Below are positions 14,121 through 62,804 of a stretch of 64,000 bases of DNA, piece by piece. The translations under genes and the position numbers were made by a program. This DNA comes from Patescibacteria group bacterium. GTDB taxonomy: Bacteria > Patescibacteriota > Minisyncoccia > Phycocordibacterales > UBA9973. The stretch is from assembly GCA_040384805.1 (NCBI GenBank), contig JAZKIP010000009.1, positions 1,490 through 65,489 of the forward strand, written 5' to 3'. Below the pieces are notes generated by a model. It worked only from the letters and a program-made list of their open reading frames with translations. It ran no database searches and had not been told where the DNA came from. The stretch's first letter is position 1; every line of letters begins with the position of its first letter.

Positions 14121-14489
14121 ATGGCAACAACAGAATTAAAACCTAAAAAGAAGACGGTCAAGAAAGGAAAAGAAGACGGGACTCAGGTCCAGCTTCGTAT
14201 CCGTGTCCGAGCCTACGAGAACAAGATCCTTGACGCATCCGTCAAGCAGATCATTGATACGGCTCTTCGCTATGATGCGACGATTGTGGGACCGATCCCG
14301 CTTCCAACCGAGATCAAGAAATACACGGTAAACCGCGCATCCTTCGTTTTCAAGAATGCCCGCGAACAATTCGAGATCAGAATCCACAAGCGCGTCATCG
14401 ATATCCTCAATCCGAATCCGAAAACGATCGAAGCGCTGACAAATCTTTCACTCCCTTCGGGTGTGGATATCGACGTGAAGATGATGTAA
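14121..14489 (+). CDS. rpsJ: 30S ribosomal protein S10 (with a roughly 22-aa N-terminal extension)
   Basis: QLRIRVRAYENKILDAS... matches the S10 core. Confidence 0.9.
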   Translation: MATTELKPKKKTVKKGKEDGTQVQLRIRVRAYENKILDASVKQIIDTALRYDATIVGPIPLPTEIKKYTVNRASFVFKNAREQFEIRIHKRVIDILNPNPKTIEALTNLSLPSGVDIDVKMM

Positions 14490-14529
14490 GTGAAAATAAC
14501 GAGCAAGCAGGGAGATTATTTTCCTTATA

Positions 14530-14543
14530 CCGACCCGGGTCGG
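14530..14543 (+). other. perfect palindrome CCGACCCGGGTCGG in the rpsJ-rplC spacer
   Basis: Seen directly; member of the CCGAC..GTCGG family. Confidence 0.5.
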
Positions 14544-14588
14544 GATGCAGATTTTAAAAATCTCACTACGTTCAATTAAAAAATCAAC

Positions 14589-17209: not shown

Positions 17210-17210
17210 C

Positions 17211-17249
17211 TTACAACAAAAAATACCCGTACGGGTATTTTTTGTTGTA
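17211..17249. terminator. 39-bp palindromic terminator ACAACAAAAAATACCCGTA|CGGGTATTTTTTGTTGT
   Basis: Perfect inverted repeat ending the tuf-rplB transcription unit. Confidence 0.75.
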
Positions 17250-17260
17250 TACTTGAATAT

Positions 17261-17650
17261 ATGAAAAAAATGACAGAACAAAAACGCTTTTCCCTGATCT
17301 CCCGCATCAAAAGCGCCAATAACGCATGGCGCGGCGTTCTGATTTTCATGCGGAGTACTCACAACGCATGGCTTCAGATATTCTTCGGTTTATTAGCTGT
17401 CTATCTTGGCTTTCTCCTGCATATCTCAAGCGTTGAATGGGTGCTCATCATATTCTGCATCGGATTCGTCATCTTGGCAGAAACTATCAATACGGCGATC
17501 GAGATCGATATTGATCTGACAAGTCCTACATATCATCCCTATGCGCGTGATACAAAGGATGTCGCCGCCGGAGCGGTATTGATCGTTGTTTTTATGGCTT
17601 CTCTCGTTGGTCTTATAATTTTTCTTCCAAAGATACTAGCTCTCCTGTAG
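17261..17650 (+). CDS. dgkA: diacylglycerol kinase / undecaprenol kinase family (DgkA)
   Basis: Three TM segments and the ETINTAIEIDIDLTSPTYHPYARDTKDVAAGAVL segment resemble DgkA. Confidence 0.65.
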   Translation: MKKMTEQKRFSLISRIKSANNAWRGVLIFMRSTHNAWLQIFFGLLAVYLGFLLHISSVEWVLIIFCIGFVILAETINTAIEIDIDLTSPTYHPYARDTKDVAAGAVLIVVFMASLVGLIIFLPKILALL

Positions 17651-17879
17651 AGGGGTTTTTGCAATACGGGGTATTCTTGCCCCAGGTGACCCTGTTCCAT
17701 GCGCGCTCGTGAATGAAATAAACGGCAAGACTGATTGAATTTGAAAGAATGACGATGATTGTCGACTTTTCAAGATCCTTCGTTACGAGATAGGCGACAC
17801 TGTAATCGATGCAGATGCTGATAAGCCGGTAGGCGATTGCCTTGGCAAGCGAGCGGTATCGTTTGTCTTTGTGGTGCAT
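17613..17879 (-). CDS. DUF2061-like small membrane protein
   Basis: RSLAKAIAYRLIS ... YFIHERAWNRVTWG resembles the DUF2061 consensus. Convergent with dgkA, overlapping it by 38 nt. Confidence 0.45.
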   Translation of the reverse strand: MHHKDKRYRSLAKAIAYRLISICIDYSVAYLVTKDLEKSTIIVILSNSISLAVYFIHERAWNRVTWGKNTPYCKNPSTGELVSLEEKL

Positions 17880-17985
17880 AGACGCATCATACTATAACTT
17901 ACATTCTTTCGCATCAGTTTATATAAAATAAAACGCTTTGTATTCCAATGAATGCAAAGCGTTTAGTATTTTCCAATTTCTTGTC

Positions 17986-18909
17986 TTAAGCCATACCCGT
18001 GATTCTATTGTATTCAAAGAGGTTATCTGTAATAATCTCTTTCCAATCATCCGGAGCAGGCTGCTTCTCACCCCACGGATGAGTTAATCCGCTGGACAAA
18101 TTCAGTCGTGCAAGGTTGACATCATACCCGGCGTTCTTCAAAGCCTCGTACACTTCTTTGGCGTCGCCGCCTTGTCCGCCAACTGACTTTTTGCCGATAC
18201 CGGGTATCAAAAGAGGTATCTCGACCCCTCCTTGGGTATAATCATAAGCAATTTGTTCAAGCTGTGTGAGCCATGTAGCTCCTACGACGGCACCGAGTCC
18301 GATATGATTTTTGGCGTTCTTTCTTATCCAGTCTGCTACACGCATGTAAACTAGGCTGCCATCTGTAGTCCCCAGCATTTCAAAATCATTCTTCCCTTCA
18401 TTTGAAGTCAGGTTTAAGACATAGACACCGCGATTTTCTGATGCTTTATCTGGTACATTGCAAAAGGGCAGCATTGAATCGCTTCCCATATATGGGGGAA
18501 TCGTTACCGCATCTGCATCCCAGAATTCAAAACCCTCAAGCATGTAATTTTCTGAAGATTTCAGAATATCTGCTTTCTTAAAATCCAAAATTGTAATCAT
18601 ACCCGGGAAATAAAGTTCGATGAGATCAAAGATCTTCGCAAGCACTATTAATCCTTCAAAATTCAAGTCTTTGGCTTTTCCGTGTTTTGAATAAAATCCC
18701 AGATTTGGCTTGAATGCCCCAGGAGCTACTTTTTGACTTGCCATGTAATCAAAAAGTTCTTCAAGCATGTCATAGAATCCTTTGATTCCACCTGAAATGA
18801 ATTTTTTGTGAAGAGTTGAAATTACAGGGTCGAGACCAAAGCAGATGATGCTTTTGTAGATCTGAGTAGTAATTTTAAGCAACTCGAGATAATTCATAGA
18901 TCTTTTCAT
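17986..18909 (-). CDS. pyrF: orotidine 5'-phosphate decarboxylase, type 2 (long form)
   Basis: CFGLDP, FKPNLGFY and Lys/Asp catalytic context typical of long-type OMP decarboxylase. Confidence 0.8.
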   Translation of the reverse strand: MKRSMNYLELLKITTQIYKSIICFGLDPVISTLHKKFISGGIKGFYDMLEELFDYMASQKVAPGAFKPNLGFYSKHGKAKDLNFEGLIVLAKIFDLIELYFPGMITILDFKKADILKSSENYMLEGFEFWDADAVTIPPYMGSDSMLPFCNVPDKASENRGVYVLNLTSNEGKNDFEMLGTTDGSLVYMRVADWIRKNAKNHIGLGAVVGATWLTQLEQIAYDYTQGGVEIPLLIPGIGKKSVGGQGGDAKEVYEALKNAGYDVNLARLNLSSGLTHPWGEKQPAPDDWKEIITDNLFEYNRITGMA

Positions 18910-19104
18910 TGTAAAGAGTTTAAGTGATGAATATTGTTTTTGTAAGAGAATTTTCCCTCATACTACAGCACCTTATGTTTTTGTCAAACTACGAAGGATT
19001 GCCTGTATTAGTGATGTTATTAAAATAACTAATATTTTCTTAGAAATTAAAAATGGAACAAAAAAACAGGACGAAATCGTTCCTGCTTTTTTATTTTTGC
19101 AAAA

Positions 19105-19704
19105 TTATTTTTCTGTTTTTTGTAAATTGTGTTTATGGTCCCAATTCTCCTGGTCAGACATCCATTCCCTCAGCATCTCTTCATTATTTTTATCGATGAA
19201 GCCATGGTCGATGGCGACAGAAAGAAGCTGTTCATAGTGAAGTAGGGAAATCACCATGCAAGGCTCTTTCAATTGCTCACCTTCCTCCTTACCAAACGGT
19301 ACGATACCCTTGAACATATCAACAGCCTTGGGTAAGCCGTAATTGAAGATAGACAAGCAATAGGGCACAATGCCTCTTGCATTGCGTACGGCCTGTACAG
19401 CTTTCGCGCTCGAACCTCCTGTTGAGATCAGGTCTTCAATCACGAGTACTCGTGATTTACCTAAATCCTTATTCGCGTCAATGCCCTCTATCTGGTTTCT
19501 TAAGCCATGGTCTTTGGGCTTGTCCCTGATGTAAGCCATCGGAAGTCCCATTGCATCAGCTAAAAGGATTGCGTAGGGAATTCCGGCAGTAGCAGTTCCT
19601 GCAATTGCATCAGGGTTGAAATGCTCAAAAACCTGTAGCTTTAGAATAATTTCCAGGAATCCATCGACTATCAATCGACGGTATTCGGGATACCAAAGAA
19701 ACAT
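19105..19704 (-). CDS. pyrE: orotate phosphoribosyltransferase
   Basis: PRTase PRPP-binding motif RVLVIEDLISTGGS. Confidence 0.85.
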   Translation of the reverse strand: MFLWYPEYRRLIVDGFLEIILKLQVFEHFNPDAIAGTATAGIPYAILLADAMGLPMAYIRDKPKDHGLRNQIEGIDANKDLGKSRVLVIEDLISTGGSSAKAVQAVRNARGIVPYCLSIFNYGLPKAVDMFKGIVPFGKEEGEQLKEPCMVISLLHYEQLLSVAIDHGFIDKNNEEMLREWMSDQENWDHKHNLQKTEK

Positions 19705-19966
19705 TCTATTATCGTTATATATGGGATTTAGTGTTCCTGACGCCCATAAAAAAGGCTTTGAAGGGTTGCCCCCATTTTGAGCCCGGCTAAAGCAAGCTTT
19801 TCACCGATTGCTGTGAGTTGGTTTATCATGTTTAGAGTTTTATTTTAAAAAATCAAGATTCTGTGCTTAATCCTACTGATTCGACCATTTTTGTCAAACA
19901 AAAAATCCTCCTAAAATAAGGGAGGATTTTAAATAGATACACCAGTCGTCATGGCAGTTACTTGTC

Positions 19967-20533
19967 CTATAAAAAAATACCATTCTTGTACAGCAGCTTG
20001 CCTAAGATCCAGAAATGAGTGATTTTAGGAAGTCGTGTCCCATCCTTTGCTCCTTTGTCCTTATCAGGCTTCAGATTTACAATCATCAGGTCGGCATAAT
20101 TGCCGACATCGATAGTACCTCGTCCTTCTATGTCGTGAGCGACTGCATGCGATTGTTTCGCAATTTCAATCAAAGACAGTTTTCCGCCTATCGTTTCATC
20201 GATCTCTTCGAGAACAGCCCTCAATGCCTTGCCGTTGGCTATCATCGTGAAGTAAAGTGATGCGGACAAAAGATACCTATTGGCGCCGTCAACAACTTCT
20301 GTACGGGTGATGTTTGCCGTATTTGACGGAAGAATAGCTGCTATTTTTTCGCCGCTGATTAAAACGTCCTTCCAGGATTCTCCTGTTTCTGTGATGAGTG
20401 TTATTTTTTGGAGGAGTGTAGCTCTTTGTGTTTTCAGAGATTTCACTAAAGTTTCTTTCATATACTTCGGTTTAAATTTACAATTTTTCTTTATTTTATT
20501 TTGGAAGTACGAATCTGGTAACCCTGAAGCCAT
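19967..20533 (-). CDS. amidohydrolase-superfamily composite (beta-sandwich) domain protein lacking the catalytic TIM barrel; possible dihydroorotase remnant
   Basis: N-terminal DVLISGEKIAAI...TEVVDGANRYLLSAS and C-terminal SLIEIAKQSHAVAHDIEGRGTIDVGNYADLMIVNL segments of amidohydrolases are present. No HxH barrel lies between them. Adjacent to pyrE/pyrF. Confidence 0.45.
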   Translation of the reverse strand: MASGLPDSYFQNKIKKNCKFKPKYMKETLVKSLKTQRATLLQKITLITETGESWKDVLISGEKIAAILPSNTANITRTEVVDGANRYLLSASLYFTMIANGKALRAVLEEIDETIGGKLSLIEIAKQSHAVAHDIEGRGTIDVGNYADLMIVNLKPDKDKGAKDGTRLPKITHFWILGKLLYKNGIFL

Positions 20534-20972
20534 TGCGCAGGCTATAGCCGAACCTTGTGCTGACTGTTTCTAGAGAGGGACGGAAAGCCATTATTTGAAC
20601 ATTAGGGAATTTCCATTTGAAAGGAAAAATAAAATAGCGCAGAGACCTCCTATAATGAACCATATTATGGATAGTATTAATCTTGCCTCCTGCAATGACG
20701 ATCAAGTATGGTTCGGAATAACGCAAATCATTACAGAGTTTTTGCATGAATTCTTTCCTGACTCTCTTGATTTCTTTTCCTCCATGAGGAGGAAGGTGAG
20801 CCGCAGTTATACTGTATATAGGATTAGTTTTGTCTTTTGTTTCCGAAAAGATAAAGACCCCAATACAACAGTAAAGGTTCGGTATAACCATGGGTTTCCA
20901 TTCCTCAGGCCCGAAATGCTGGGTTGTCCATCGAGCACGTTTGGTTTTTGAAAGATCTACTTTTATAGCCAT
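20496..20972 (-). CDS. hypothetical protein
   Basis: ORF upstream of the amidohydrolase-like gene with a 38-nt overlap. No recognisable motif; an alternative + strand ORF 20595..20951 is equally uninformative. Confidence 0.3.
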   Translation of the reverse strand: MAIKVDLSKTKRARWTTQHFGPEEWKPMVIPNLYCCIGVFIFSETKDKTNPIYSITAAHLPPHGGKEIKRVRKEFMQKLCNDLRYSEPYLIVIAGGKINTIHNMVHYRRSLRYFIFPFKWKFPNVQIMAFRPSLETVSTRFGYSLRNGFRVTRFVLPK

Positions 20973-21068
20973 ATATATTTGATTTTATTTTTTAAAAATA
21001 GGTTTTTCTAAACCTTACCTTATTTATTAAATATGTCAATGATCTTCTATATCTATAACCTTTATAAT

Positions 21069-21096
21069 TTGACAATCTTTTTTAATTTGCTAGTAT
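21069..21096 (+). promoter_or_regulatory. second exact copy of the TTGACA-N16-TGcTAGTAT promoter (rpsS operon)
   Basis: 21068..21099 is identical to 12710..12741. Confidence 0.7.
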
Positions 21097-21187
21097 GGAC
21101 GGACAAGGCTCTAGCGAGCTTATTTATATTGTATGACCCGCCTCCGCAAAACTACGGATGGGCAGGTGCGATATAGAAGAATTTATT

Positions 21188-21532
21188 ATGACAAGATCAC
21201 TCAAAAAAGGTCCATATGTTGATCCACGGCTGATGAAGAAAATTGCCGGCAAAAAGCCTATTCAAACAGGCCCGATCAAGACATGGTCGCGCGCATGCGT
21301 TATTCACCCTGATATGGTCGGATTCGTCTTTGCAGTCCATAATGGGAAGATTTTCATAGAAGTCCTAGTAACCGAGGACATGGTGGGTCATCGTCTCGGC
21401 GAATTCGCACAGACTCGCAAGTTCGTCCGACACGGAGGAAAGATGCAGAAAGAACTTGAGCAGAAGAAGAAAGAAGCCGAAATTACCGCCGCCAAGTCCG
21501 CCAAAGCAACAACCGATACGAAAAAGAAGTAA
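21188..21532 (+). CDS. rpsS: 30S ribosomal protein S19 (Lys-rich C-terminal extension)
   Basis: [12 protein letters not shown]... S19 signature. ORF track start 21158; internal ATG at 21188 preferred. Confidence 0.9.
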
Positions 21533-21542
21533 TATTTAGATC

Positions 21543-21977
21543 ATGAAAGCATTTCTTAAAAACTACAGACAGTCTCCCCGCAAGGTTCGCCTTGTAGCAG
21601 ACTTAATAAAAGGCAAAAGGGTTGCCGACGCTTTTGTTCAATTGAAATCCCTTCCAAAGCGCGCATCAGGGCCAGTTGAGAAGCTCCTTGCAGGCGCAGT
21701 TGCCAATGCCAAGCACGCAGGTGTCTCGACCGACAATCTGATCGTTTCAAACGTGACGGTCAATAAAGGAATTGTCATGAAACGCAGCATGCCCCGCGCC
21801 CGCGGTTCTGCATCACGCATCAACAAGCGAACGAGCCATATCATGCTTACTCTTATGGAAAATTCCGAAACGAAGAGCAAAAAGAAAACGGTAAAGCCGA
21901 AGAAGGAAGTGAAGGAGACTGGAGCAGAAAAGCCAAAAACCATTAAAACAAAAGCTAAAAAACAAGAAACACAGTAA
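21543..21977 (+). CDS. rplV: 50S ribosomal protein L22 (Lys-rich C-terminal tail)
   Basis: L22 core SPRKVRLVADLIKGKRVADA... Confidence 0.9.
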   Translation: MKAFLKNYRQSPRKVRLVADLIKGKRVADAFVQLKSLPKRASGPVEKLLAGAVANAKHAGVSTDNLIVSNVTVNKGIVMKRSMPRARGSASRINKRTSHIMLTLMENSETKSKKKTVKPKKEVKETGAEKPKTIKTKAKKQETQ

Positions 21978-21982
21978 ATTAT

Positions 21983-22678
21983 ATGTCAAAAGTCGTCCAT
22001 CCATATGCACATAGATTAGTAACCCTTCGTGATTGGAAATCACGCTGGTTTGCTGACAAGAAATACAAGGATCTGCTAGAGAGCGATGTTGTTATCCGTG
22101 CGTACCTTTCTAAAAAGCTCCGCGGATTCTACGTATCCCGCATCGAGATTGAACGAAACGCTAAGACGACAAAGGTCATGATCTTTACATCACGCCCGGG
22201 AATGATCATCGGCCGATCAGGCGAAGGAGCGGCAAAGCTCAAGAGCGATCTCTTGACCCTTATGGCCAAGAAAGGCATCAAAGCTGTCGAGGATTTCAAG
22301 CTCGACATTGTCGAAGTGACCAATCCCGATGCTGACGCTGCCATTGTTGCATGCTCCATTGCCGAAGGTCTTGAGAAGCGCCTTCCATACCGCCGCGTGA
22401 TAAAACAGGCGATCGAAAAGATCATGGCAGCGCGCGGAGTCAAAGGAGCTCGTATCTATCTTGGCGGCCGTCTTGCAGGAAGCGAAATTGCCCGCAGCGA
22501 GCAGATCAAGCGCGGTTCGATCCCGCTTCAGACATTCAGAGCAGACGTTGATTTTGCCCGTGAGAAGGCTCACATGAGCTACGGCGATATTGGTATTAAG
22601 GTATGGATCTACCGGGGCGAAGTCTTTTCAGCCCAAAGTCCATCAGGATCGGGCAGGAATGATCGCAATGATAAGTAA
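21983..22678 (+). CDS. rpsC: 30S ribosomal protein S3
   Basis: KH and S3-C domains (GRSGEGAAKLKSDL..., RRVIKQAIEKIMAARGVKGARI). Confidence 0.93.
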   Translation: MSKVVHPYAHRLVTLRDWKSRWFADKKYKDLLESDVVIRAYLSKKLRGFYVSRIEIERNAKTTKVMIFTSRPGMIIGRSGEGAAKLKSDLLTLMAKKGIKAVEDFKLDIVEVTNPDADAAIVACSIAEGLEKRLPYRRVIKQAIEKIMAARGVKGARIYLGGRLAGSEIARSEQIKRGSIPLQTFRADVDFAREKAHMSYGDIGIKVWIYRGEVFSAQSPSGSGRNDRNDK

Positions 22679-22689
22679 ATTACATTTTT

Positions 22690-23106
22690 ATGTTACTACC
22701 AAAGAAAGTAAAATTTAGAAAATGGCAGACAGGACGTACGGATATGTCGAAAGTGACACCGGATACGCGCGGTATTACCCTTGCCTTCGGATCATACGGT
22801 CTCAAAGCCACATCCGGCGGACGCGTTCGCTCCAATCAGATAGAATCAGCCCGCAAGGTGACATCACGAACAATCGGCAAAACAGGCCGTATGTGGATCC
22901 GCATCTTCCCTGACCGGCCGTTTACTGCAAAGCCTGCAGAAGTAGGAATGGGAAAGGGAAAAGGAGATCCTCAAGGATACTGTCTCGATGTCCGTCCCGG
23001 CCGCATGCTTTTTGAAGTCGATGGCGTACCTGAAGCGATTGCAAAGGAAGCCCTCCGCAAGGCGGGAACAAAATTACCAGTGACGACTCGTATTGTTGCT
23101 CGATAA
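22690..23106 (+). CDS. rplP: 50S ribosomal protein L16
   Basis: L16 core (KVTSRTIGKTGRMWIRIFPDRPFTAKPAEVGMGKGKG). Confidence 0.93.
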   Translation: MLLPKKVKFRKWQTGRTDMSKVTPDTRGITLAFGSYGLKATSGGRVRSNQIESARKVTSRTIGKTGRMWIRIFPDRPFTAKPAEVGMGKGKGDPQGYCLDVRPGRMLFEVDGVPEAIAKEALRKAGTKLPVTTRIVAR

Positions 23107-23128
23107 ACCTGCCTGCCGGCAGGCAGGT
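23107..23128 (+). repeat. 22-bp perfect palindrome ACCTGCCTGCCGGCAGGCAGGT filling the rplP-rpsQ gap, where rpmC normally sits
   Basis: Exact copy also at 26544..26565; related hairpins at 27661..27677 and 61519..61537. Confidence 0.7.
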
Positions 23129-23141
23129 ATAAATAAAATCA

Positions 23142-23387
23142 ATGAATACACAAAAGACACAATCAAAGAAAGTTCTCAAAGGAGTCGTTATTTCCGACAA
23201 GATGGACAAGACTATCGTTGTCGAGGTAACGCGCTTTGTCGAGCATTCCAAATACCAGAAGCGCATCAAGAAGTCGAAGAAATACAAGGCTCACGATGAA
23301 GACAATAGCAAGAAAGTCGGCGATATCGTAGAGATCGAAGAAACACGCCCGATTTCAAAGGATAAGAAATTTAAAGTAATCGCATAA
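23142..23387 (+). CDS. rpsQ: 30S ribosomal protein S17
   Basis: [22 protein letters not shown]... S17 signature. Confidence 0.9.
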
Positions 23388-23394
23388 TACATAT

Positions 23395-23766
23395 ATGATT
23401 CAAGACGGAACAATAGTAAAGATCGCGGACAACGCCGGAGGAAAGATCGGCAAGGTCTTCAAGGTGCTTGGATCATCAAAGCGCCGCTATGCCGGCATTG
23501 GCGACAGGGTCATCATCTCTGTGAAGATCGCCGAACCGCGCAAGGGTGTCAAGAAGAAGGATGTCCACCAGGCTGTCGTTGTCCGCACCGTAAAGGCATT
23601 CCGCCGCAAGGACGGATCATATATCCGCTTTGATGACAACGCTGTCGTGATCCTCGAAAAGGACAAGCAGGATCCTAAGGGCGGCCGTGTTTTCGGGCCG
23701 ATCCCGCGCGAGATGGCAGACCGCGGATATCAGAAGATCATTTCGCTTGCGCAGGAGGTAATTTAG
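23395..23766 (+). CDS. rplN: 50S ribosomal protein L14
   Basis: MIQDGTIVKIADNAGGK... L14 signature. Confidence 0.93.
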   Translation: MIQDGTIVKIADNAGGKIGKVFKVLGSSKRRYAGIGDRVIISVKIAEPRKGVKKKDVHQAVVVRTVKAFRRKDGSYIRFDDNAVVILEKDKQDPKGGRVFGPIPREMADRGYQKIISLAQEVI

Positions 23767-23770
23767 AAAA

Positions 23771-23950
23771 ATAATGAAGCGAAGCGGAATATATTTTTCT
23801 AAATCCGCCATACAAATTTATTGATTATAGTTAAGAGGTGTGATAGGGTGATATAAGTTTTATAACATACAAGGAATATTTGAAGTAATAAATAAATTTG
23901 GGGCGGATAACGATTTTTATAGTCGTTCCTCCTTAAAAATCAGTCATATG
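23771..23950 (+). repeat. 180-bp element, copy 1 (rplN-rplX spacer, ends with the rplX ATG)
   Basis: Identical to 24163..24342 on base-by-base comparison. Confidence 0.85.
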
Positions 23951-24163
23951 CATATCAAAAAAGGAGACAATGTAATAGTTATAACAGGCGACAGCAAGGG
24001 CAAGAAGGGCAAGGTCCTTCGCATGCTTCCGAAGGAAGGCAAGGTCATCGTCGAAGGCATCAACGTACGTAAGAAGACCCGCAAGTCGCGCACGAAGGGA
24101 GAAGCAAGCCAAATCATCGAGCTTGCGATGCCTATTCATGCATCAAATGTCAGGAAGGGATGA
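23948..24163 (+). CDS. rplX: 50S ribosomal protein L24
   Basis: KOW motif IKKGDNVIVITGDSKGKKGKV. Confidence 0.85.
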   Translation: MHIKKGDNVIVITGDSKGKKGKVLRMLPKEGKVIVEGINVRKKTRKSRTKGEASQIIELAMPIHASNVRKG

Positions 24164-24342
24164 TAATGAAGCGAAGCGGAATATATTTTTCTAAATCCGC
24201 CATACAAATTTATTGATTATAGTTAAGAGGTGTGATAGGGTGATATAAGTTTTATAACATACAAGGAATATTTGAAGTAATAAATAAATTTGGGGCGGAT
24301 AACGATTTTTATAGTCGTTCCTCCTTAAAAATCAGTCATATG
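24163..24342 (+). repeat. 180-bp element, copy 2 (rplX-rplE spacer, ends with the rplE ATG)
   Basis: Identical to 23771..23950. Confidence 0.85.
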
Positions 24343-24879
24343 GAAACAGTCAAACAAAAAGAAAATAAGGCACTTGGTACGCTTAAAGACAAGTACGGCT
24401 ACAAGAACAAAATGGCTGCGCCTCACTTGGTCAAAGTTGTCGTTGCGTCAGGAACAGGAAGCGGCGTCAAGCGCGACAAGGATCGCAACAAATTCGTAAC
24501 AGAGCGCCTTGCAAAGATCACCGGCCAGAAGCCTGCAGTCAGGGGAGCAAAGAAATCAATCGCGAGCTTTAAGATGCGTCAGGGCGACCCGATCGGGGTC
24601 ATGGTGACTCTCCGCGGCGCGCGCATGTACGGATTCCTCGACAAGCTTATCAATGTCGCTATTCCCCGCACAAAGGACTTCCGCGGCATCGAGCGAAAGA
24701 TCGTCGACAATATCGGCAATCTGACAATGAGCATCAAGGAGCATACGATCTTCCCGGAAACAGGCGATGAAGAGTTCAAAGATGTCTTCGGTCTTGCAAT
24801 AACGATCGTCACAACCGCAAAGAACAAACAGGAAGCAACAGACTTCTTCGAACAAATAGGAATTCCATTCAAGAAATAA
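24340..24879 (+). CDS. rplE: 50S ribosomal protein L5
   Basis: L5 core (ITGQKPAVRGAKKSIASFKMRQGDPIG...). Confidence 0.93.
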   Translation: METVKQKENKALGTLKDKYGYKNKMAAPHLVKVVVASGTGSGVKRDKDRNKFVTERLAKITGQKPAVRGAKKSIASFKMRQGDPIGVMVTLRGARMYGFLDKLINVAIPRTKDFRGIERKIVDNIGNLTMSIKEHTIFPETGDEEFKDVFGLAITIVTTAKNKQEATDFFEQIGIPFKK

Positions 24880-24890
24880 AAATTATATTA

Positions 24891-24916
24891 AAACTCCCCG
24901 AAAGGGGAGTTTTAAT
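24891..24916 (+). terminator. hairpin AAAACTCCCCG-AAA-GGGGAGTTTT inside the spc operon
   Basis: Perfect stem with a T-run, immediately followed by a promoter. Confidence 0.65.
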
Positions 24917-24923
24917 ATATTGT

Positions 24924-24952
24924 TTGACATCCAAACCTCAATCTGCTAGTAT
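24924..24952 (+). promoter_or_regulatory. promoter TTGACA-N17-TGcTAGTAT upstream of rpsN
   Basis: Consensus -35 and the shared extended -10 motif. Confidence 0.6.
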
Positions 24953-25061
24953 GAGACAAGTTCGATAGGGAGTCTGATCTGTGTTTCTCCTTAAGGTTTT
25001 AGATAAAACTTTAAGAAATAACACATGATATCACTCACCCGAAGAACGGGCATTTTTATTT

Positions 25062-25247
25062 ATGGCAAAAACATCAGTCATTGCGCGACATAAGAAGAAG
25101 TCAAAATTCAGCACGCGGGAAACAAACCGCTGTTTTCGCTGCGGCCGCGGCCACGCATACATGAGAGATTTCGGTCTCTGCCGTATCTGCTTCAGGGAGC
25201 TTGCCAATGACGGCCTGCTTCCAGGTGTTCGTAAATCAAGCTGGTAA
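25062..25247 (+). CDS. rpsN: 30S ribosomal protein S14 type Z (zinc-binding)
   Basis: 61 aa with CxxC...CxxC ([20 protein letters not shown]). Confidence 0.9.
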
Positions 25248-25257
25248 TCAACATTAT

Positions 25258-25644
25258 ATGGATCAAATCGCAAACATGATAAATATGATCAAGAACGCGG
25301 GCGTGCGCGAGCATGAAACTATTACCGTCCCGTATTCGAAGATCAAGCACACGATTGCAGATTGTCTCGTCCGCGAGGGGTATCTCTCATCTGTCACGAA
25401 GAAAACAAAGAAAGGACAGGCTGTTCTTGAACTTGGGCTCGTATACGTCGAAGGAACTCCCAAAGTAACAGGGGCTGAGCGCGTTTCGAAGTCATCTCGC
25501 CGCATCTACAAAGGAGTCAAAGCTATCAAGCCATCGCGCAACGGATATGGGCTTACAGTCATGACGACATCAAAGGGTATTTTGACTGACAAGGAGGCAA
25601 AGAAGGAAATGGTCGGAGGAGAAGTTTTATTTAGACTCTGGTAA
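25258..25644 (+). CDS. rpsH: 30S ribosomal protein S8
   Basis: MDQIANMINMIKNA... S8 signature; internal start of ORF 25201..25644. Confidence 0.9.
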   Translation: MDQIANMINMIKNAGVREHETITVPYSKIKHTIADCLVREGYLSSVTKKTKKGQAVLELGLVYVEGTPKVTGAERVSKSSRRIYKGVKAIKPSRNGYGLTVMTTSKGILTDKEAKKEMVGGEVLFRLW

Positions 25645-25653
25645 TTATATTAT

Positions 25654-26193
25654 ATGTCACGCATAGGAAAACAAACAGTTATAGTTCCTGCCGGTACCGA
25701 AGTAAAGCTCTCCGGTGTGACTTTCTCCGTCAAAGGCCCGAAAGGCACTCTTGTTCGCGATTTCCCGGGAGATGTTGCGATCAACATCAACGGCAATGAA
25801 ATTACGTTTATCACAAAGGAGGATACGACTGACAAGAATATCAACGCTCTCTGGGGTACATACGCATCGCATGTGAAAAATATGATCACCGGCGTCAATG
25901 AGGGATTTTCCAAAAAGCTTATCCTCGAAGGAGTCGGATTCAAATCCGACGTCGCAGGCACAACTCTCAATCTTGCTCTCGGATTTTCTCATCCTGTTAA
26001 AGTGGCGATTCCTACCGGACTGACTGTGACTGCCGACAAGAACAATATTACGGTTACAGGGACTGACAAGGAACTTGTCGGATCGTTTACCGCATCAATC
26101 CGCTCCATGAAGAAACCTGAACCATACAAGGGCAAGGGATTCCGATACAGCGATGAAGTTATCCGCCGCAAGCAGGGCAAGAAAGCTGCATAA
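25654..26193 (+). CDS. rplF: 50S ribosomal protein L6
   Basis: MSRIGKQTVIVPAGTEVK... L6 signature. Confidence 0.93.
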   Translation: MSRIGKQTVIVPAGTEVKLSGVTFSVKGPKGTLVRDFPGDVAININGNEITFITKEDTTDKNINALWGTYASHVKNMITGVNEGFSKKLILEGVGFKSDVAGTTLNLALGFSHPVKVAIPTGLTVTADKNNITVTGTDKELVGSFTASIRSMKKPEPYKGKGFRYSDEVIRRKQGKKAA

Positions 26194-26202
26194 TATTTAT
26201 AT

Positions 26203-26544
26203 ATGAACAAGAAACTGGAAAAAAGAATACGTTTAAAGAAAAAGATCCGCACCAAAGTAAACGGAACTCTCGGTATTCCGCGTCTCTCGGTATTTCGTTC
26301 AAACAGCTATGTCTATGCGCAAGTCATCGATGATACGACAGGAACAACTCTCGTGTCTGCGTCGGATATGAAGGCGAAAGACGGTTCAAAAACAGACCGA
26401 TCAAAGACTGTGGGAATGGATGTTGCTAAAGCGTCACTTGCAAAAGGAATCAAGAAAGTTGTTTTTGACCGTAATGGATTTAAGTATACCGGTCGGGTGA
26501 AAGCATTGGCGGATGCAGCCCGTGAAGGAGGTCTAGAGTTTTAA
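26203..26544 (+). CDS. rplR: 50S ribosomal protein L18
   Basis: L18 core ([17 protein letters not shown]...). Confidence 0.9.
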
Positions 26545-26565
26545 CCTGCCTGCCGGCAGGCAGGT
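26544..26565 (+). repeat. second exact copy of palindrome ACCTGCCTGCCGGCAGGCAGGT (rplR-rpsE spacer)
   Basis: Overlaps the last base of the rplR stop codon. Confidence 0.7.
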
Positions 26566-26577
26566 ACATACAATATT

Positions 26578-27189
26578 ATGGATACACCAAAACCAAAACA
26601 GAATACGACACCGACACGAGGGAGCAATGACCGCGGAGGGCGTCGCGAAGGAGGAGATCGGAGGCCTCGCGCGACATTCGAGCGGCCGAAGCCCGAGTTC
26701 GACCAGAAGATGGTTTCTATCCGCCGTGTTACCCGCGTTGTTGCCGGAGGCCGCCGCATGACATTCGCAGTCGCCATTGCGATCGGTGATAAGAAAGGAT
26801 CTGTCGGATTGGGAACAGGAAAGGGAGGCGATACAGCGATTGCGATCGCTAAAGCGCTTCGTCAGGCAAAGAAAAATATGTTCAAGATAAAAACGACGAA
26901 AGAATTCTCGATCACTCATCCAGTATCCGCGAAATTTTCAAGCTCAAAACTCTCACTTATGCCGAACCGCGGCAAGGGTATGGTTGCAGGAAGTACAGTT
27001 CGCGACATGCTTACTCTCGCGGGACTCAAGAATATTACGGCAAAACTTCATTCAGGAAGCAAGAACAAGCTTAACAACGCTCGCGTTGCATATGCGGCAC
27101 TCTATGAGCTTCGCTCAAAAGCAACTCTTCCGAAAATTCCGGCGGTTGTGACTGAAGCAATAGCAGAAGAGAAGAAAGAGGCTAAATAA
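26578..27189 (+). CDS. rpsE: 30S ribosomal protein S5 (Arg/Gly-rich N-terminal extension)
   Basis: S5 dsRBD and C-domain (RRVTRVVAGGRRMTFAVAIAIGDKKGSVGLGTGKG). Confidence 0.93.
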   Translation: MDTPKPKQNTTPTRGSNDRGGRREGGDRRPRATFERPKPEFDQKMVSIRRVTRVVAGGRRMTFAVAIAIGDKKGSVGLGTGKGGDTAIAIAKALRQAKKNMFKIKTTKEFSITHPVSAKFSSSKLSLMPNRGKGMVAGSTVRDMLTLAGLKNITAKLHSGSKNKLNNARVAYAALYELRSKATLPKIPAVVTEAIAEEKKEAK

Positions 27190-27198
27190 ATATATTTT

Positions 27199-27630
27199 AT
27201 GCAATTAAACAATTTACAAAGGAAACATCCTAATAAAAAAGCTACACAGGTCGGTCGCGGCGGAACTCGCGGCAAGACATCAGGCCGTGGCGGCAAGGGG
27301 CAAACTGCCCGCGCCGGAAACAAGCGCCGCCCTCAAATGCGTGATATCATAAAGAAGCTTCCTAAACTGCGTGGATACCGGTTCAAGTCGCCGAATAAGA
27401 AGATCGTTGTGATCAATGTCTCGTCTCTTAATGTATTTGCTGCAGGAGACAAGATTACCCCGGAAATTGTCTTTGAAAAGGGTCTTATCCGAAGAATAGG
27501 CGGCGTATATCCGGCTGTAAAGATATTAGGTTCAGGCGATCTTGCCGTAAAACTCGACGTCATCGGTTTTGAAGTATCCGAGAGCGCTAAAGCCAAGATT
27601 GAAAAAGCTGGCGGCAGTATTGGAAAGTAA
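27199..27630 (+). CDS. rplO: 50S ribosomal protein L15
   Basis: GRGGTRGKTSGRGGKGQ... L15 signature. It follows rpsE after 9 nt, so no rpmD (L30) gene is present. Confidence 0.9.
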   Translation: MQLNNLQRKHPNKKATQVGRGGTRGKTSGRGGKGQTARAGNKRRPQMRDIIKKLPKLRGYRFKSPNKKIVVINVSSLNVFAAGDKITPEIVFEKGLIRRIGGVYPAVKILGSGDLAVKLDVIGFEVSESAKAKIEKAGGSIGK

Positions 27631-27660
27631 GGAATAGAATCCCGTTAGAAGCCAAGCCTT

Positions 27661-27677
27661 GCCTGCAGTAGGCAGGC
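27661..27677 (+). other. hairpin GCCTGC-AGTAG-GCAGGC in the rplO-secY spacer
   Basis: Same CCTGC/GCAGG arms as the 22-bp palindromes. Confidence 0.45.
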
Positions 27678-27705
27678 GCGATTGCAATTTAAATACTGAA
27701 ATAAT

Positions 27706-28977
27706 ATGGAAACAGCGTGGAATAAAATAAGAGCAATATTCACCGACAAATCGCTTCGATCGCGTGTTTTGTTCGTTCTTGCCATGCTTATTCTTTTCCG
27801 GTTTCTGTCAGTAATCCCGATTCCCGGAGTTGATCCTATCAAGCTTCAGGCGTTTCTTGCCAACAATCAGTTCTTCGGCGTTCTCAATATCTTTTCCGGC
27901 GGCGGTCTTTCGCATCTCTCGATCCTCATGCTTGGCGTAGGTCCCTATATTACGGCTTCGATCATTATGCAGCTTTTGACAATCATGTCTCCGCGCCTCA
28001 AAGCCATCTATCAGGAAGAAGGCGAAGCGGGACGCAAGAAATTCAATCAATGGAGCCGCTTGCTGACTGTTCCGCTTGGAATCGTTCAGGGGTTGGCTCT
28101 TCTAGTCGTCCTTAAAGGCCAGGGAATTCTGGGAAATATCTCGAATTTTGAAATGATTGCGAACCTTGCTGTCATCGTCGGAGGAGCGCTCCTTTTGATG
28201 TGGATCGGCGAGCTCATATCTGAATTCGGCATCGGCAACGGAGTGTCTCTTATTATCTTCGCGGGAATCGTTGCCAACATCCCGACCGAAGTTTCCCAGT
28301 TCCTCTTCACCTTCGATATGGCTAATCTGCCGGTGTATATTCTTTTCCTTGCTGTCGGAATCTTGATTGTCGCAGGCGTTGTTGTTGTCACCGAAGCGGA
28401 ACGTCCGATTCCTGTGACCTATGCCAAACAGCAGAGAGGAAACACTGCCGGCGGAAGCGTTCAGACCTATCTGCCGCTACGGGTAAACCAGTCCGGCGTT
28501 ATTCCGATTATTTTCGCGCTTTCAATTCTCATGTTCCCCCAGCTTATCGGAAACGCTTTGGCAAGCGCAACAAGCCCGGTACTTCTTAGCATTTCGCGCG
28601 GGCTTCTCTGGTTTGTTGCCAATACATGGCTTTATTCTCTTGTCTACTTTATTTTTGTATTCATGTTTACATATTTCTATACAGCAGTCACTTTCGATCC
28701 TGACAAGCTGTCGACGAATCTTCAGAAAAACGGCGCCTTCATTCCCGGCATCCGACCGGGTCCTGCAACACGCGAGTATATTGCAAAGATTCTCGGCCGC
28801 ATTACACTTATGGGCGCGATATTCCTCGGCTTGATCGCCGTTCTCCCGCTTGTTATGCGCGCCATCACCGGCATTACGGCTTTCGCCCTCGGTGGTACCG
28901 CCCTCTTGATCGTCGTGTCAGTTGTTATGGATCTCATCAAGAAAATCGAAGCGCAATTATCAATGAGAGAGTATTAG
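27706..28977 (+). CDS. secY: preprotein translocase subunit SecY
   Basis: 10 TM helices with conserved SecY segments (GVGPYITASIIMQLL, GNGVSLIIFAGIV). Confidence 0.95.
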   Translation: METAWNKIRAIFTDKSLRSRVLFVLAMLILFRFLSVIPIPGVDPIKLQAFLANNQFFGVLNIFSGGGLSHLSILMLGVGPYITASIIMQLLTIMSPRLKAIYQEEGEAGRKKFNQWSRLLTVPLGIVQGLALLVVLKGQGILGNISNFEMIANLAVIVGGALLLMWIGELISEFGIGNGVSLIIFAGIVANIPTEVSQFLFTFDMANLPVYILFLAVGILIVAGVVVVTEAERPIPVTYAKQQRGNTAGGSVQTYLPLRVNQSGVIPIIFALSILMFPQLIGNALASATSPVLLSISRGLLWFVANTWLYSLVYFIFVFMFTYFYTAVTFDPDKLSTNLQKNGAFIPGIRPGPATREYIAKILGRITLMGAIFLGLIAVLPLVMRAITGITAFALGGTALLIVVSVVMDLIKKIEAQLSMREY

Positions 28978-29015
28978 GATAATTACGAATTATCAATGAC
29001 TAATTACGAATTCAA

Positions 29016-29047
29016 CAAAAATCACAAATAATATTATTTGTGATTTT
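29016..29047 (+). terminator. palindromic terminator AAAAATCACAAATAA-TAT-TATTTGTGATTTTT
   Basis: Perfect inverted repeat after secY. Confidence 0.6.
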
Positions 29048-29062
29048 TGTTATAATATACCT

Positions 29063-29656
29063 ATGAATACACCGCTTACATTTGTTTTCTTTGGAATCGT
29101 CGGGTCCGGCAAGGGAACCCAGGTCGAGCTTCTGCAGAAATATCTGCGTGAAAAAACCCTTAGTATTGATTTCGTTGATGCTTCGCCCGGCCTTGAATAC
29201 AGGAAGCTTATTTCAAGCGGAAGCTATACGGGAGAGCTTGTTCGGGATGCCTACAATCAGGGATATCTCCAGCCTGATTTCCTGACGGACGGCCTCTTTA
29301 CGAAAATTCTCACGGAAAAAACATCGCCATCCTCCGTCATTATGGCGGACGGGTATCCTCGCACACTCGTGCAGTCAAAAACATTCGAAGATGCGATGAT
29401 ATTTTATCGCCGGGACGATGTCCGTGTTATTTATATACAGGTAGGAAAAGAAGAAGCGACACGAAGAATGAAACTCCGTGGTCGATCCGATGATACCGAC
29501 GAAGGAATCGCGAAGCGCTTCGATGAATATGTAAATAATGTTATTCCTTCAATGAATTATTTCGAAGGCAGGCCCGGATATGCTCTTTATGTCATCAACG
29601 GGGAGCAGTCGATCGAAGACGTCCATGCTGATATTATCAAGTCTCTCGGAATCTAA
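29063..29656 (+). CDS. adk: adenylate kinase (short type, no zinc lid)
   Basis: P-loop GIVGSGKGTQ plus NMP-binding and LID remnants. Confidence 0.85.
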   Translation: MNTPLTFVFFGIVGSGKGTQVELLQKYLREKTLSIDFVDASPGLEYRKLISSGSYTGELVRDAYNQGYLQPDFLTDGLFTKILTEKTSPSSVIMADGYPRTLVQSKTFEDAMIFYRRDDVRVIYIQVGKEEATRRMKLRGRSDDTDEGIAKRFDEYVNNVIPSMNYFEGRPGYALYVINGEQSIEDVHADIIKSLGI

Positions 29657-29657
29657 T

Positions 29658-30344
29658 ATGGAAGACTCGAAGCATATTGTCATATCGTTGGGCGGATCGC
29701 TTATTGTGCCGGAAGAGATAGACTCCGGATTCCTAAAAGAATTTATTCATGCTCTGAGTGAATATGCTAGCCGTGGCTTTCGATTTGTTATTATAACCGG
29801 CGGCGGGAGAATTTCCCGCAATTATACGCTTTCGGCGCAAGACATAGGGGAACCGACAAGCATCGATCTTGACTGGATTGGCATTGCAGTGACGCGACTT
29901 AATGCCGAATTCATTCGTGTTCTTTTTGGAAATCTGGCTCATCCTGACATTATCTTCAATCCTGAAGAGATGCCTGAGACAGATAAAGCGATTATGGTGG
30001 GAGGAGGATGGAAGCCTGGAAATTCGAGCGATTTGGCTGCTGTCATCGTTGCAAAGTCCATCGGCGCCCGCACGATCATCAATCTCTCCAATATCGATTA
30101 TGTGTACGACAAGGATCCTCGCTATAATCCCGATGCGATAAAAATCGAAAGTGCATCATGGGGGGATCTCCGCGCACTGTTGCCGAAAGAATGGGAACCG
30201 GGCCTTAATAGTCCTTTTGATCCCATTGCAGCCGAAAAAGCCGAAGCGCTTGGTCTCGAAGTTGCTATCATGAACGGCAAAAATATAGACAATCTCAGGA
30301 ATTATATCGACCAGAAGCCTTTTATTGGAACAATTATCCGTTAA
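29658..30344 (+). CDS. pyrH: amino-acid-kinase-fold protein resembling archaeal-type UMP kinase
   Basis: IVISLGGSLIVPE, GGGRISR, GIAVTRLNA, PGNSSDLAAVIVAK and a DPRYNPDAIKI-like segment parallel archaeal PyrH. ORF track start 29580; ATG at 29658 directly after the adk stop. Confidence 0.55.
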   Translation: MEDSKHIVISLGGSLIVPEEIDSGFLKEFIHALSEYASRGFRFVIITGGGRISRNYTLSAQDIGEPTSIDLDWIGIAVTRLNAEFIRVLFGNLAHPDIIFNPEEMPETDKAIMVGGGWKPGNSSDLAAVIVAKSIGARTIINLSNIDYVYDKDPRYNPDAIKIESASWGDLRALLPKEWEPGLNSPFDPIAAEKAEALGLEVAIMNGKNIDNLRNYIDQKPFIGTIIR

Positions 30345-30363: not shown

Positions 30364-30391
30364 TTGCAAAAGGAGTTTTGATCGGCTAGTA
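30364..30391 (+). promoter_or_regulatory. promoter TTGCAA-N17-TAGTAT, 10 nt upstream of the map ATG (near-leaderless)
   Basis: Shared TAGTAT -10 motif. Confidence 0.45.
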
Positions 30392-30401
30392 TTGAGCCTA
30401 C

Positions 30402-31697: not shown

Positions 31698-31776
31698 GGA
31701 AAAAGTTTTATTGGAACAAGGTACACTCTTCCGAAAGCGCCCGAAATAATCGCGGGTTATGATATAATGTCTACTC

Positions 31777-40055: not shown

Positions 40056-40133
40056 AAAATTAGATACCGATAGAAATAAATAGAATTTGCCTACCTGTGA
40101 TTGATAATAGCATATTCATGTTAGTATGGCAAT

Positions 40134-49432: not shown

Positions 49433-49444
49433 TATACTAAAAAT

Positions 49445-62689: not shown

Positions 62690-62763
62690 CCACCCTTAGC
62701 TCAGTTGGTTAGAGCACAGAGCTTATACCTCTGGGGTCCTTGGTTCGAATCCAAGAGGGTGGA
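62690..62763 (+). tRNA. tRNA-Ile (anticodon UAU), no encoded CCA
   Basis: Cloverleaf: acceptor CCACCCT/AGGGTGG, D-arm GCTC-AGTTGGTTA-GAGC, anticodon stem CAGAG/CTCTG with loop CTTATAC, T-arm CTTGG-TTCGAAT-CCAAG, discriminator A. Confidence 0.8.
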
Positions 62764-62804
62764 CACTTTAAAAAACAAGCTAAACCTTGTTTTTTAAAGT
62801 GTCC
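62761..62804 (+). terminator. 44-bp palindrome GGACACTTTAAAAAACAAG-CTAAAC-CTTGTTTTTTAAAGTGTCC overlapping the tRNA 3' end
   Basis: 19-bp perfect arms. Confidence 0.65.

Follow-up and report, generated by a model that had tools for sequence, protein, structure and literature searches.

A dispersed family of three-hairpin elements ending at start codons in Patescibacteria, and the exact 180-nucleotide duplication around rplX that probably belongs to it

Why is a small ribosomal-protein gene bracketed by two identical stretches of intergenic DNA? The question is raised by a 64,000-nt stretch from a Patescibacteria group bacterium (assembly GCA_040384805.1, contig JAZKIP010000009.1, positions 1,490-65,489 of the forward strand), called the window below and numbered from its first letter, in which the spc-operon gene rplX lies between two copies of a 180-nt repeat. 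An earlier sequence-only reading had proposed a transposed regulatory or non-coding RNA cassette, an element resembling a miniature inverted-repeat transposable element (MITE), or an assembly duplication. The explanation favoured here, to which we assign a probability of roughly 55%, is that the copies are members of a large family of three-hairpin cassettes running from stop codon to start codon, copy 1 being complete and copy 2 a local copy lacking the 5' arm of the first hairpin. The genes at the locus are as follows.

23395..23766, + strand: rplN (L14), upstream of copy 1; open reading frame (ORF) and translation; identical protein on Logan contig L001, annotated PF00238
23948..24163, + strand: rplX (L24, 71 residues), ORF bracketed by both copies
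24340..24879, + strand: rplE (L5), downstream of copy 2; ORF, 88% identity to L5 of Paceibacteria/Minisyncoccia metagenome-assembled genomes (MAGs)

The duplication itself is as sharp as first described: 23771-23950 and 24163-24342 are 100% identical over 180 nt, not one further base matches on either side, and each copy closes with the start codon of the next gene, the ATG of rplX (23948) or of rplE (24340). A blastn search found no other near-identical copy within the 64-kb window. G+C content is 29% in the repeat and 45% in the window as a whole. For comparison, 80 species-representative genomes were matched by rplE (63-88% identity), all of them Patescibacteria MAGs of Paceibacteria/Nomurabacteria/Minisyncoccia type, in which an L24 of about 72 residues is the usual length. 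The two gaps had been described as normally under 20 nt. At 181 nt (rplN-rplX) and 176 nt (rplX-rplE) the window gaps are indeed unusual for the clade, because the relatives mostly have 1-70 nt there; many have 4-14 nt and a few have 100-157, and the operon is generally loose in this clade. 'TAA tatt ATG' is the typical native junction in the relatives. Some bases of the 180-mer are flank-like and common to both sites, ATAAT at the left end and ATG at the right, and these bounding bases fit ordinary junction sequence.

The repeat belongs to a wider family. Exact 20-23-mers from its centre had no match in genome or metagenome collections, and a degenerate pattern for the 3' block alone worked (GATTTTTATARTC-N7-12-TTAAAAATYA, with the ATG left out on purpose). 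In the 80 loci, relatives of the repeat were sought by sensitive blastn, nhmmer and iterated profiles. Six of the 80 S10-spc loci contained a member, no two at the same junction; all lie on the coding strand and stop at the downstream ATG:

rpsC-rplP junction (L079), coding strand: family member, 66% identity over full length
rpsS-rplV junction (L020), coding strand: family member
upstream of rpsS (L067), coding strand: family member
rpsQ-rplN junction (L034), coding strand: family member
rplX-rplE junction (L019), coding strand: family member
rplN-rplX junction (L027), coding strand: family member, internally deleted form

The metagenome scan, from which the family counts are taken, extended this to at least 120 metagenome contigs, with 124 matches among those listed. 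An ATG stands at +2 to +6 in 113 of the 124 (88 at +3, 18 at +5 in the form CATATG, 6 at +2). About 118 of the listed matches are true elements, and in 113 the ATG of a gene lies within 0-2 nt; about six matches have no conserved GGGTG prefix and resemble chance, while in about five real elements the ATG is preceded by an insertion. The ATGs following the elements are true gene starts, for example those of MPTINQL (S12), MLLPKK (L16), MIQ (L14) and MSHTVHPYA (S3), and this right-end ATG is the only fixed flank of the family. The genes that follow are largely housekeeping genes, with nusA nine times among the listed members, rpsL six, ftsZ four, and recA, pilC-like, rplP and rplK three each; groEL, clpB, EF-type GTPases, nusG, mutM and more ribosomal-protein genes also occur. 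The 94 proteins encoded downstream fall into at least 74 Pfam families. No family copies were found on viral contigs.

Members share three hairpins, P1, P2 and P3, with the following consensus modules, read along the coding strand:

P1: TTTAGAAAAATA / loop A-N-GA-RY-GAA-RY-GACTA / TATTTTTCTAA; an A/T stem
P2: basal stem ACCCYGTnAAAT / ATTTnACRGGGT, closing a variable insert
P3: xyzGATTTTTA / loop TAGTC-RY-TTC-RY-TCCTT / (T)AAAAATC-A-z'y'x', then ATG; the 3' strand reaches the start codon

All three helices covary in a check of the kind that the sequence-only reading had suggested. The P1 stem shows paired changes such as AAAACTA/TAGTTTT and GGAATCTA/TAGATTCC. The P2 stem is present in 106 of 113 members and spans 38-297 nt; in compact members its insert consists of two sub-hairpins with UUCG-, GNRA- or GAAG-type loops, GAA triloops not being dominant in the P2 inserts. 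In P3, the triplet xyz is fully paired with z'y'x' in 88 of 113 members, where shuffles gave 42 on average and 53 at most, and at least nine Watson-Crick types of this triplet occur. RNAalifold recovers P2 and P3 unaided. Covariation statistics were obtained under a hand-specified P1+P2+P3 structure for 24 compact members with 500 shuffles: 90.7% of cells are paired, 21 pairs show double-sided changes against 12.0±1.6 in shuffles, and the covariation score is 0.241 against 0.112 (0 of 500 shuffles), slid registers scoring at most 0.084. The hairpins are contiguous, with P1-P2 linkers of -2 to 5 nt, about 0-3 nt in a full element, and P2-P3 linkers of 0-3 nt, or 0-2 nt in a full element, and the distance from P3 to the ATG is 0 nt in 69 of 92 members and 2 nt in 18. 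At the other end, 48 members have an adjacent same-strand upstream ORF, and in 23 of them its stop codon falls at offset 0 to +2 of the P1 5' arm. P3 (45 nt) hardly varies among organisms that share only 40-85% identity with the window in their ribosomal proteins.

The P1 and P3 loops together form a 20-nt inverted repeat (TAAGGAGCGAAGCGACTATA / TATAGTCGCTTCRCTCCTTA), which is subterminal, about ten more conserved bases flanking it on each side. A loop-loop (kissing) interaction between P1 and P3 was considered and rejected after two tests gave no partner-specific signal. A conserved small ORF starting from a 5' ATG was likewise rejected: the L019 member gives M K stop, the L079 and L067 members have no ATG, and lengths vary. 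In five cases where the element precedes the first gene of an operon, a near-consensus promoter (TTGACA-16/17-TATAAT or TAGTAT) is found 54-65 nt upstream of P1, so that the element there belongs to the 5' untranslated region (UTR); no leaderless upstream ORF ending in P1 was seen at operon-first elements. Rfam searches returned nothing at E up to 10 on window positions 20000-30000 and no relevant hit at E up to 1 in five loci that carry family members, and a scan of the window at gathering thresholds gave transfer-messenger RNA (tmRNA) and tRNA only. The literature searched on repeats, leaders or MITEs of Patescibacteria and the Candidate Phyla Radiation (CPR) describes no such element. The family appears to be large, modular and previously undescribed, and to be specific to Patescibacteria of the Paceibacteria/Nomurabacteria type. 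The proposed regulatory or non-coding RNA cassette is close to what was found, in that the repeat is part of a dispersed, modular, hairpin-rich family at many junctions in many genomes.

Seen against this consensus, the window contains two closely related elements and one distant one, with the following modules.

23761..23947, + strand: copy 1, complete P1-P2-P3, from the rplN stop codon to the rplX start codon; homology to L178/L195
23761..23804, + strand: P1 hairpin of copy 1; -10.4 kcal/mol, z = -2.84
23803..23908, + strand: P2 of copy 1, closing a variable insert; inverted repeat and folds
23821..23849 (copy 2: 24213-24241), + strand: promoter-like motif inside P2, conserved in L178/L195; predicted function
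23909..23947, + strand: P3 module of copy 1; 3' block conserved in all members, covarying helix
24163..24339, + strand: copy 2, without the P1 5' arm; exact match to 23771-23947, from the rplX stop TGA (24161-24163) to the rplE start (24340)
14487..14588, + strand: third member, diverged and compact; rpsJ-rplC gap, ending at the rplC ATG (14589)

The 180-mer is therefore a real identity, but the biological element is not the same unit, copy 1 starting at about 23761/23762. Two contigs from two other metagenomes (L178 and L195) carry the same subfamily between rpsL and rpsG, with 84-85% identity over 189-194 nt. Because the homology of the window to these contigs begins at 23759, and because of the P1 hairpin, copy 1 is taken as a complete element at 23761-23947. 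The fold of the whole copy (23755-23953) has z = -2.8, whereas the boundaries first proposed give z = -0.76. The P1 5' arm (TTTAGAAAAATA, 23762-23773) holds the rplN stop codon TAG (23764-23766); ATGAAGCGAAGCGGAA forms the loop, including GCGAAGC at 23779-23785, and the 3' arm is TATATTTTTCTAAA (23790-23803). The basal stem of P2 comprises ATCCGCC / GGCGGAT plus CAAATTTATTGATTA / TAATAAATAAATTTG; a terminator scan found no intrinsic terminator inside either copy, the P2 stem standing 5-6 nt from the T-run. P3 has its 5' strand at 23909-23918 (AACGATTTTT), its loop at 23919-23934 (ATAGTCGTTCCTCCTT) and its 3' strand at 23935-23945 (AAAAATCAGTC), followed by AT and the ATG of rplX (23948). Copy 2 starts inside the P1 loop, so that P1 is effectively missing: the sequence upstream of it, GGAAGGGATG, yields a weak P1 (-4.7 kcal/mol, z = +0.63). 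The third member was found with the nhmmer 3'-block profile (E = 7e-8) and is matched over its full length by a covariance model, R1, at 14487-14591 with 26 bits (E = 7e-4).

The small hairpin AACGA..TCGTT noticed in the sequence-only reading is present at 23909-23927, although it is not the helix that the family conserves. Across the family, its 5' strand covaries with the bases just before the ATG and not with the TCGTT arm. When it was tried as the conserved helix, the 3' arm scored 70 against a shuffle mean of 61 and a maximum of 72, while the triplet before the ATG does exceed its shuffles.

How copy 2 arose is suggested by these boundaries and by a parallel case. Most likely, copying within the locus produced it recently, through gene conversion or microhomology (ATAAT at the left edge, ATG at the right), and not through classical transposition. 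An unrelated contig of the Joint Genome Institute (L154) has three elements, before secE, nusG and rplK, of which two bracket a 59-residue secE at a spacing of 390 nt; its first and third elements are 98% identical from P2 to the ATG, while their P1 modules differ. This pattern fits concerted evolution among resident copies. At the rpsS-rplV junction of L020 (1447-1600), the ATG of the element is followed by 23 nt that duplicate the rplV start (ATGAAAGCATTTTTAAAAAATTA), by TAG, by about 50 nt and by the real rplV start; this duplication is the trace left when copying or insertion carried along a piece of the 5' end of rplV.

What could such an element do? The family, its architecture and covariation, its start-codon register, its gene associations, its patchy distribution and the presence of local near-identical copies are matters of observation, and they are set in a genome with distinctive translation starts. 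A Shine-Dalgarno core (4 nt) is found in only 3 of 49 window genes. It is true, as the sequence-only reading stated, that neither copy supplies a Shine-Dalgarno sequence, but this is uninformative, because so few genes in the window have one. In at least ten window genes an extended -10 element (TGnTAnnnT) ends 6-9 nt before the ATG (examples are at 30380-30401, 31755-31776, 40112-40133 and 49423-49444), which is the geometry of a leaderless mRNA and suggests that leaderless mRNAs may be widespread in this organism. Within operons, the spacing between cistrons in the window is 3-12 nt.

In the favoured explanation, the element would be co-transcribed with its operon, and a genome that makes no use of Shine-Dalgarno pairing would rely on leaderless starts and on stop-start reinitiation. 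A 180-nt spacer would not be bridgeable by Shine-Dalgarno-dependent initiation, since the genome is Shine-Dalgarno-free. Because the three hairpins are contiguous, the folded element would bring the stop codon within a few backbone nucleotides of the start codon, as at native junctions, and P3 would supply a conserved start-codon context. With this geometry and this context, the cassette could be inserted between essential cistrons or ahead of housekeeping genes while downstream translation is kept, and it would be tolerated, or used, as reinitiation is preserved. The mechanism as a whole, a co-transcribed spacer that keeps downstream translation, has about one chance in three of being correct, and the reinitiation step, which we infer, is its weakest part. 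That the family represents a new class of cis-acting expression element, in which the downstream cistron is translated across a folded spacer without Shine-Dalgarno pairing, is a rather unlikely extension of the same idea. Such an element could work by reinitiation or shunting across the three hairpins, or P3 could be cleaved at its 3' foot to free a leaderless mRNA, and it would explain why the family ends exactly at the AUG, why it frequently starts at the upstream stop codon and why it is placed before core housekeeping genes throughout an entire bacterial class.

Several points weigh against this account. For roughly half of the elements no upstream ORF lies adjacent, and therefore reinitiation cannot be the whole story. 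A terminating ribosome would unwind P1, so that the closeness of stop and start amounts to a geometric argument. The P1 and P3 loops are mutually reverse-complementary with one consensus, yet do not co-vary within elements (11.88, against 11.87 for shuffled partners); RNA function leaves this unexplained. Counted with a symmetric stem finder, G·U pairs do not exceed A·C mismatches in any helix (25 against 41 in P2, 20 against 21 in P1, 7 against 16 in P3, 52 against 78 overall), a ratio that fits DNA-level palindromy better than RNA selection; compensatory changes, for their part, are strong. In the window itself, the minimum-free-energy fold of the copies favours the small hairpin over the family P3, and the P3 loop of this variant has lost 2 nt by deletion. 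Finally, every functional step, including transcription of the window copies, the copying mechanism and the role in translation, is one that we infer.

The most serious competitor, though an unlikely one, draws on the same weaknesses. The elements might be selfish palindromic repeats acting at the DNA level, like repetitive extragenic palindromes (REPs), the doublets they form as REPINs, bacterial interspersed mosaic elements (BIMEs), BOX elements or MITEs, and might be moved as single-stranded DNA hairpins by a trans-acting recombinase, either related to HUH enzymes and REP-associated tyrosine transposases (RAYTs) or of another kind. Orientation and ATG register would then reflect a preference for a short target at the right end, followed by purifying selection in a compact genome. 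The 20-nt inverted repeat with a single consensus, the lack of a G·U excess, and the GCGAAGC / RY-GAA-RY mini-hairpin found in P1 and, on the opposite strand, in P3 all suit such an origin; mini-hairpins of the GCGAAGC type have far greater stability in DNA than in RNA, and they are known from initiation sites on single-stranded DNA (PMC13037366). So do the patchy occupation of orthologous junctions (7 occupied among the 80 relatives), the truncated and internally deleted derivatives (window copy 2 and L027) and the identical copies within one genome. However, no transposase, RAYT or autonomous partner turned up, although no genome-wide search for one was made, and pairing distances between P1 and P3 revealed no long version with an ORF in the 5-10 kb of flanks examined, the P1 profile hidden Markov model being too weak for long versions. 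The near-invariance of P3 over distant hosts is unusual for selfish DNA, the same housekeeping genes recur across organisms (nusA nine times, rpsL six times), and 96% of elements are in start-codon register even where a long 5' UTR permits any position. The MITE-like label proposed earlier captures a dispersed, duplicative repeat, but the strict orientation and register do not fit it, the inverted repeat is subterminal, within the P1 and P3 loops, and not terminal, and comparison with empty junctions in relatives shows no target-site duplication, just a 2-nt AT ambiguity.

A conventional cis-regulatory RNA leader is less probable again. In this case P3, with or without P1 and P2, would bind a host factor that co-regulates translation or elongation of housekeeping genes, the candidates being the ribosome or S1, a ribosomal protein, or NusB-S10 acting through the boxA-like CUCYUUAAAAAU, and new copies would arise by duplication of the leader. 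The covarying helices, the invariable sense orientation and strict AUG register, the very strong conservation of P3 over distant hosts, the promoters upstream of P1 that place the element in a 5' UTR, the UUCG- and GNRA-like loops capping the P2 sub-hairpins, and the targets themselves (including nusA, nusB, nusG, the S10 operon, rpsL, rplK and rplJ) are all as expected of a leader. P3 resembles Escherichia coli rrn boxA at 14 of 18 positions; a comparison with an rRNA leader did not settle this, the single leader examined (L145) giving only a loose boxA-like match, ACUCUUUGCAGAAAAU, which itself counts against a leader of this kind. There is also no matching Rfam family and no wobble signature, an RNA-binding factor would not need the P1 loop to be the reverse complement of the P3 loop, and the element is dispensable for rplX and rplE, because the closest relatives lack it at these junctions.

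Less likely still is a portable promoter cassette, in which the P2 insert would carry a sigma-70-type promoter, rplX and rplE would each be transcribed from a promoter of its own, and P3 would lie in a leader of about 95 nt. The window subfamily has a sigma-70-like form, TTGATT-17-TAGGGT with an upstream TG (in copy 1, TTGATT at 23821-23826, a 17-nt spacer, TG at 23841-23842 and TAGGGT at 23844-23849), and L178/L195, although 15% divergent, retain the motif (23821-23849 and 24213-24241). Its form is that of the strong promoters of the window, TTGACA-16/17-(TGn)TAGTAT at 21069 and 24924, and the operon of this clade is already split by a terminator and a promoter after rplE. On the other hand, the TAGGGT -10 matches only three of six consensus positions, and the motif lies below the threshold of the consensus scan, which did not call it. 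Promoter-like sites scoring at least 10 of 12 occur in 11 of 87 elements only, and compact members have no such insert, so that a promoter is not the common function of the family, although an internal promoter may add to function in the window subfamily. The extended -10-like element TGaTATAAG of the sequence-only reading can be found (TGATATAAG, 23849-23857), but it is less convincing than the TTGATT-N14-TGA-TAGGGT that is conserved in L178/L195.

An assembly duplication, in which two strains with one element each or a collapsed or mis-joined repeat were merged into one contig, is very improbable: 100% identity over 180 nt in a metagenome-type assembly and the lack of any record of the exact rplX and rplE proteins in other assemblies would suit it, but placing rplX requires all four junctions (rplN-element, element-rplX, rplX-element and element-rplE), the left boundaries differ between the complete copy 1 and the truncated copy 2, an independent Logan contig from SRR26324625 that encodes the exact rplN protein carries the rplN-repeat junction and stops 30 nt into the repeat, at k-1 for k = 31, as a true repeat branch would give, and near-identical copies bracket a small gene in the unrelated L154 assembly too.

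Other features of these operons deserve mention. The 182-nt gap between rplE and rpsZ was considered as a diverged third copy of the repeat and rejected, since it consists of a terminator and a promoter: a 16-bp bidirectional terminator hairpin (24884-24919 within 24880-25061) is followed by a near-consensus promoter, TTGACA-17-TAGTAT (24924-24952), and then by a structured leader of about 110 nt. In the 80 relatives the gap after rplE is 130-3500 nt, so that the spc operon is split after rplE across the clade. The S10 operon of the window is also broken, between rplB and rpsS, by about 3.9 kb (17210-21187) that encode a diacylglycerol kinase (+ strand) and, all on the - strand, a DUF2061 protein, an orotidine monophosphate (OMP)-decarboxylase-like protein, a phosphoribosyltransferase and two unknown ORFs; rpsS resumes from a TTGACA-16-TAGTAT promoter (21069-21096). 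A small G+C-rich hairpin and a T-run follow just downstream of the promoter in L118, L141, L160 and L172, 20-60 nt upstream of P1, and the rpsS leader of the window likewise has a G+C-rich hairpin and then a T-run (21106-21121); these promoter-proximal structures may act as a 5' stabiliser or attenuator.

Hairpins of other kinds occupy intergenic positions as well. A perfect 20-nt palindrome, CCTGCCTGCC|GGCAGGCAGG, stands directly after the TAA of rplP and of rplR (23107-23128 and 26545-26564), and different stop-adjacent hairpins occur in the L4-L23, L23-L2 and L15-secY gaps; together they form a second, smaller intergenic hairpin repeat family. In other Paceibacteria, unrelated repeats fill the same junctions as the family studied here (L030, L024, L007). 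RAAC4_OD1_1 (L030) has a 59-nt hairpin before both rplX and rplE (3665-3723 and 3943-4000), L024 has an AC-rich 55-mer before rplV and rplE (1340-1395 and 3948-4002), and the rplN-rplX gap of L007 contains a bare ATCCGCC...GGCGGAT hairpin. As regards gene content, rpmC (L29) is absent between rplP and rpsQ (a 35-nt gap, 23106-23142), and rpmD (L30) is absent between rpsE and rplO (a 9-nt gap, 27189-27199); in both cases the gap only was examined. The window also encodes a tRNA-Ile with the unusual anticodon TAT (UAU) at 62690-62764 and a tmRNA at 57422-57805 with the tag peptide ANKVASVKSPYTGNFALAFA.

Patescibacteria (CPR) account for a large part of bacterial diversity; most have not been cultured, their ribosomes are unusual, and to our knowledge translation initiation in them is essentially unstudied. 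If the element acts in expression, it would provide a concrete, testable handle on Shine-Dalgarno-independent initiation or reinitiation in this group. If it is instead a selfish repeat, it would be an unusually long-lived one, and its exact targeting of start codons in essential operons would inform on mobile DNA in minimal genomes. There is a practical side too, in that these repeats break short-read assemblies inside the ribosomal-protein operons that serve as phylogenetic markers.

Among known systems, the BOX elements of Streptococcus pneumoniae (boxA-boxB(n)-boxC) resemble the family in being modular and intergenic, with end modules that are partly inverted copies and a variable middle; they too have strong secondary structure, lie beside genes, are co-transcribed and have no transposase of their own. 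There is no sequence similarity, however, and BOX elements occur in both orientations at variable distances from genes, whereas the present family is always in sense, ends at a start codon and often begins at the upstream stop, with ends conserved over a far wider phylogenetic range. REPs, BIMEs and REPINs are likewise imperfect palindromes in inverted pairs around a spacer, found between genes within operons and after stop codons, with wobble-free palindromy and concerted evolution of the copies within a genome. Their units pair with one another, whereas here P1 and P3 fold locally, the A/T arms are not complementary and there is no GTAG-type 5' tetranucleotide; nor are REPs in start-codon register, as the family is. 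Correia repeat enclosed elements (CREE) and enterobacterial repetitive intergenic consensus (ERIC) sequences are similar in length (100-200 nt), in lying near genes and being transcribed into mRNA, in their patchy occurrence between strains, and in that they may carry promoter-like sequences and alter the expression of neighbours. They differ in having terminal inverted repeats, a TA duplication and either orientation, against a subterminal inverted repeat in loops, no duplication seen and a fixed orientation and register here. The palindrome-associated transposable elements (PATEs) derived from IS200/IS605 are a poor match as well, since the P1 and P3 loops are reverse-complementary and the polarity of the A/T arms is opposite.

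Ribosomal-protein leaders and boxA/Nus leaders (boxA GCUCUUUAACAA) share with the family a structured RNA just upstream of ribosomal-protein, nus and translation genes, and the 3' part of P3, CUCYUUAAAAAU, resembles boxA, a likeness that the L145 rRNA leader did not settle. The family differs in that one motif precedes at least 74 gene families, with no Rfam match and no wobble signature, and in being dispensable at orthologous junctions. In mitochondrial tRNA punctuation and in ribosome shunting or hopping (the 35S leader of cauliflower mosaic virus, T4 gene 60), a folded spacer also lies between coding regions, and these systems, like the window genome, have initiation without Shine-Dalgarno pairing and leaderless starts; the analogy is geometric only, since no tRNA-like fold was found here and nothing points to cleavage or bypass. 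Taken together, the family behaves like the REP and BOX types of intergenic repeat, yet it differs from them in being tied to start codons, and in many cases to stop codons as well, in a lineage free of Shine-Dalgarno sequences.

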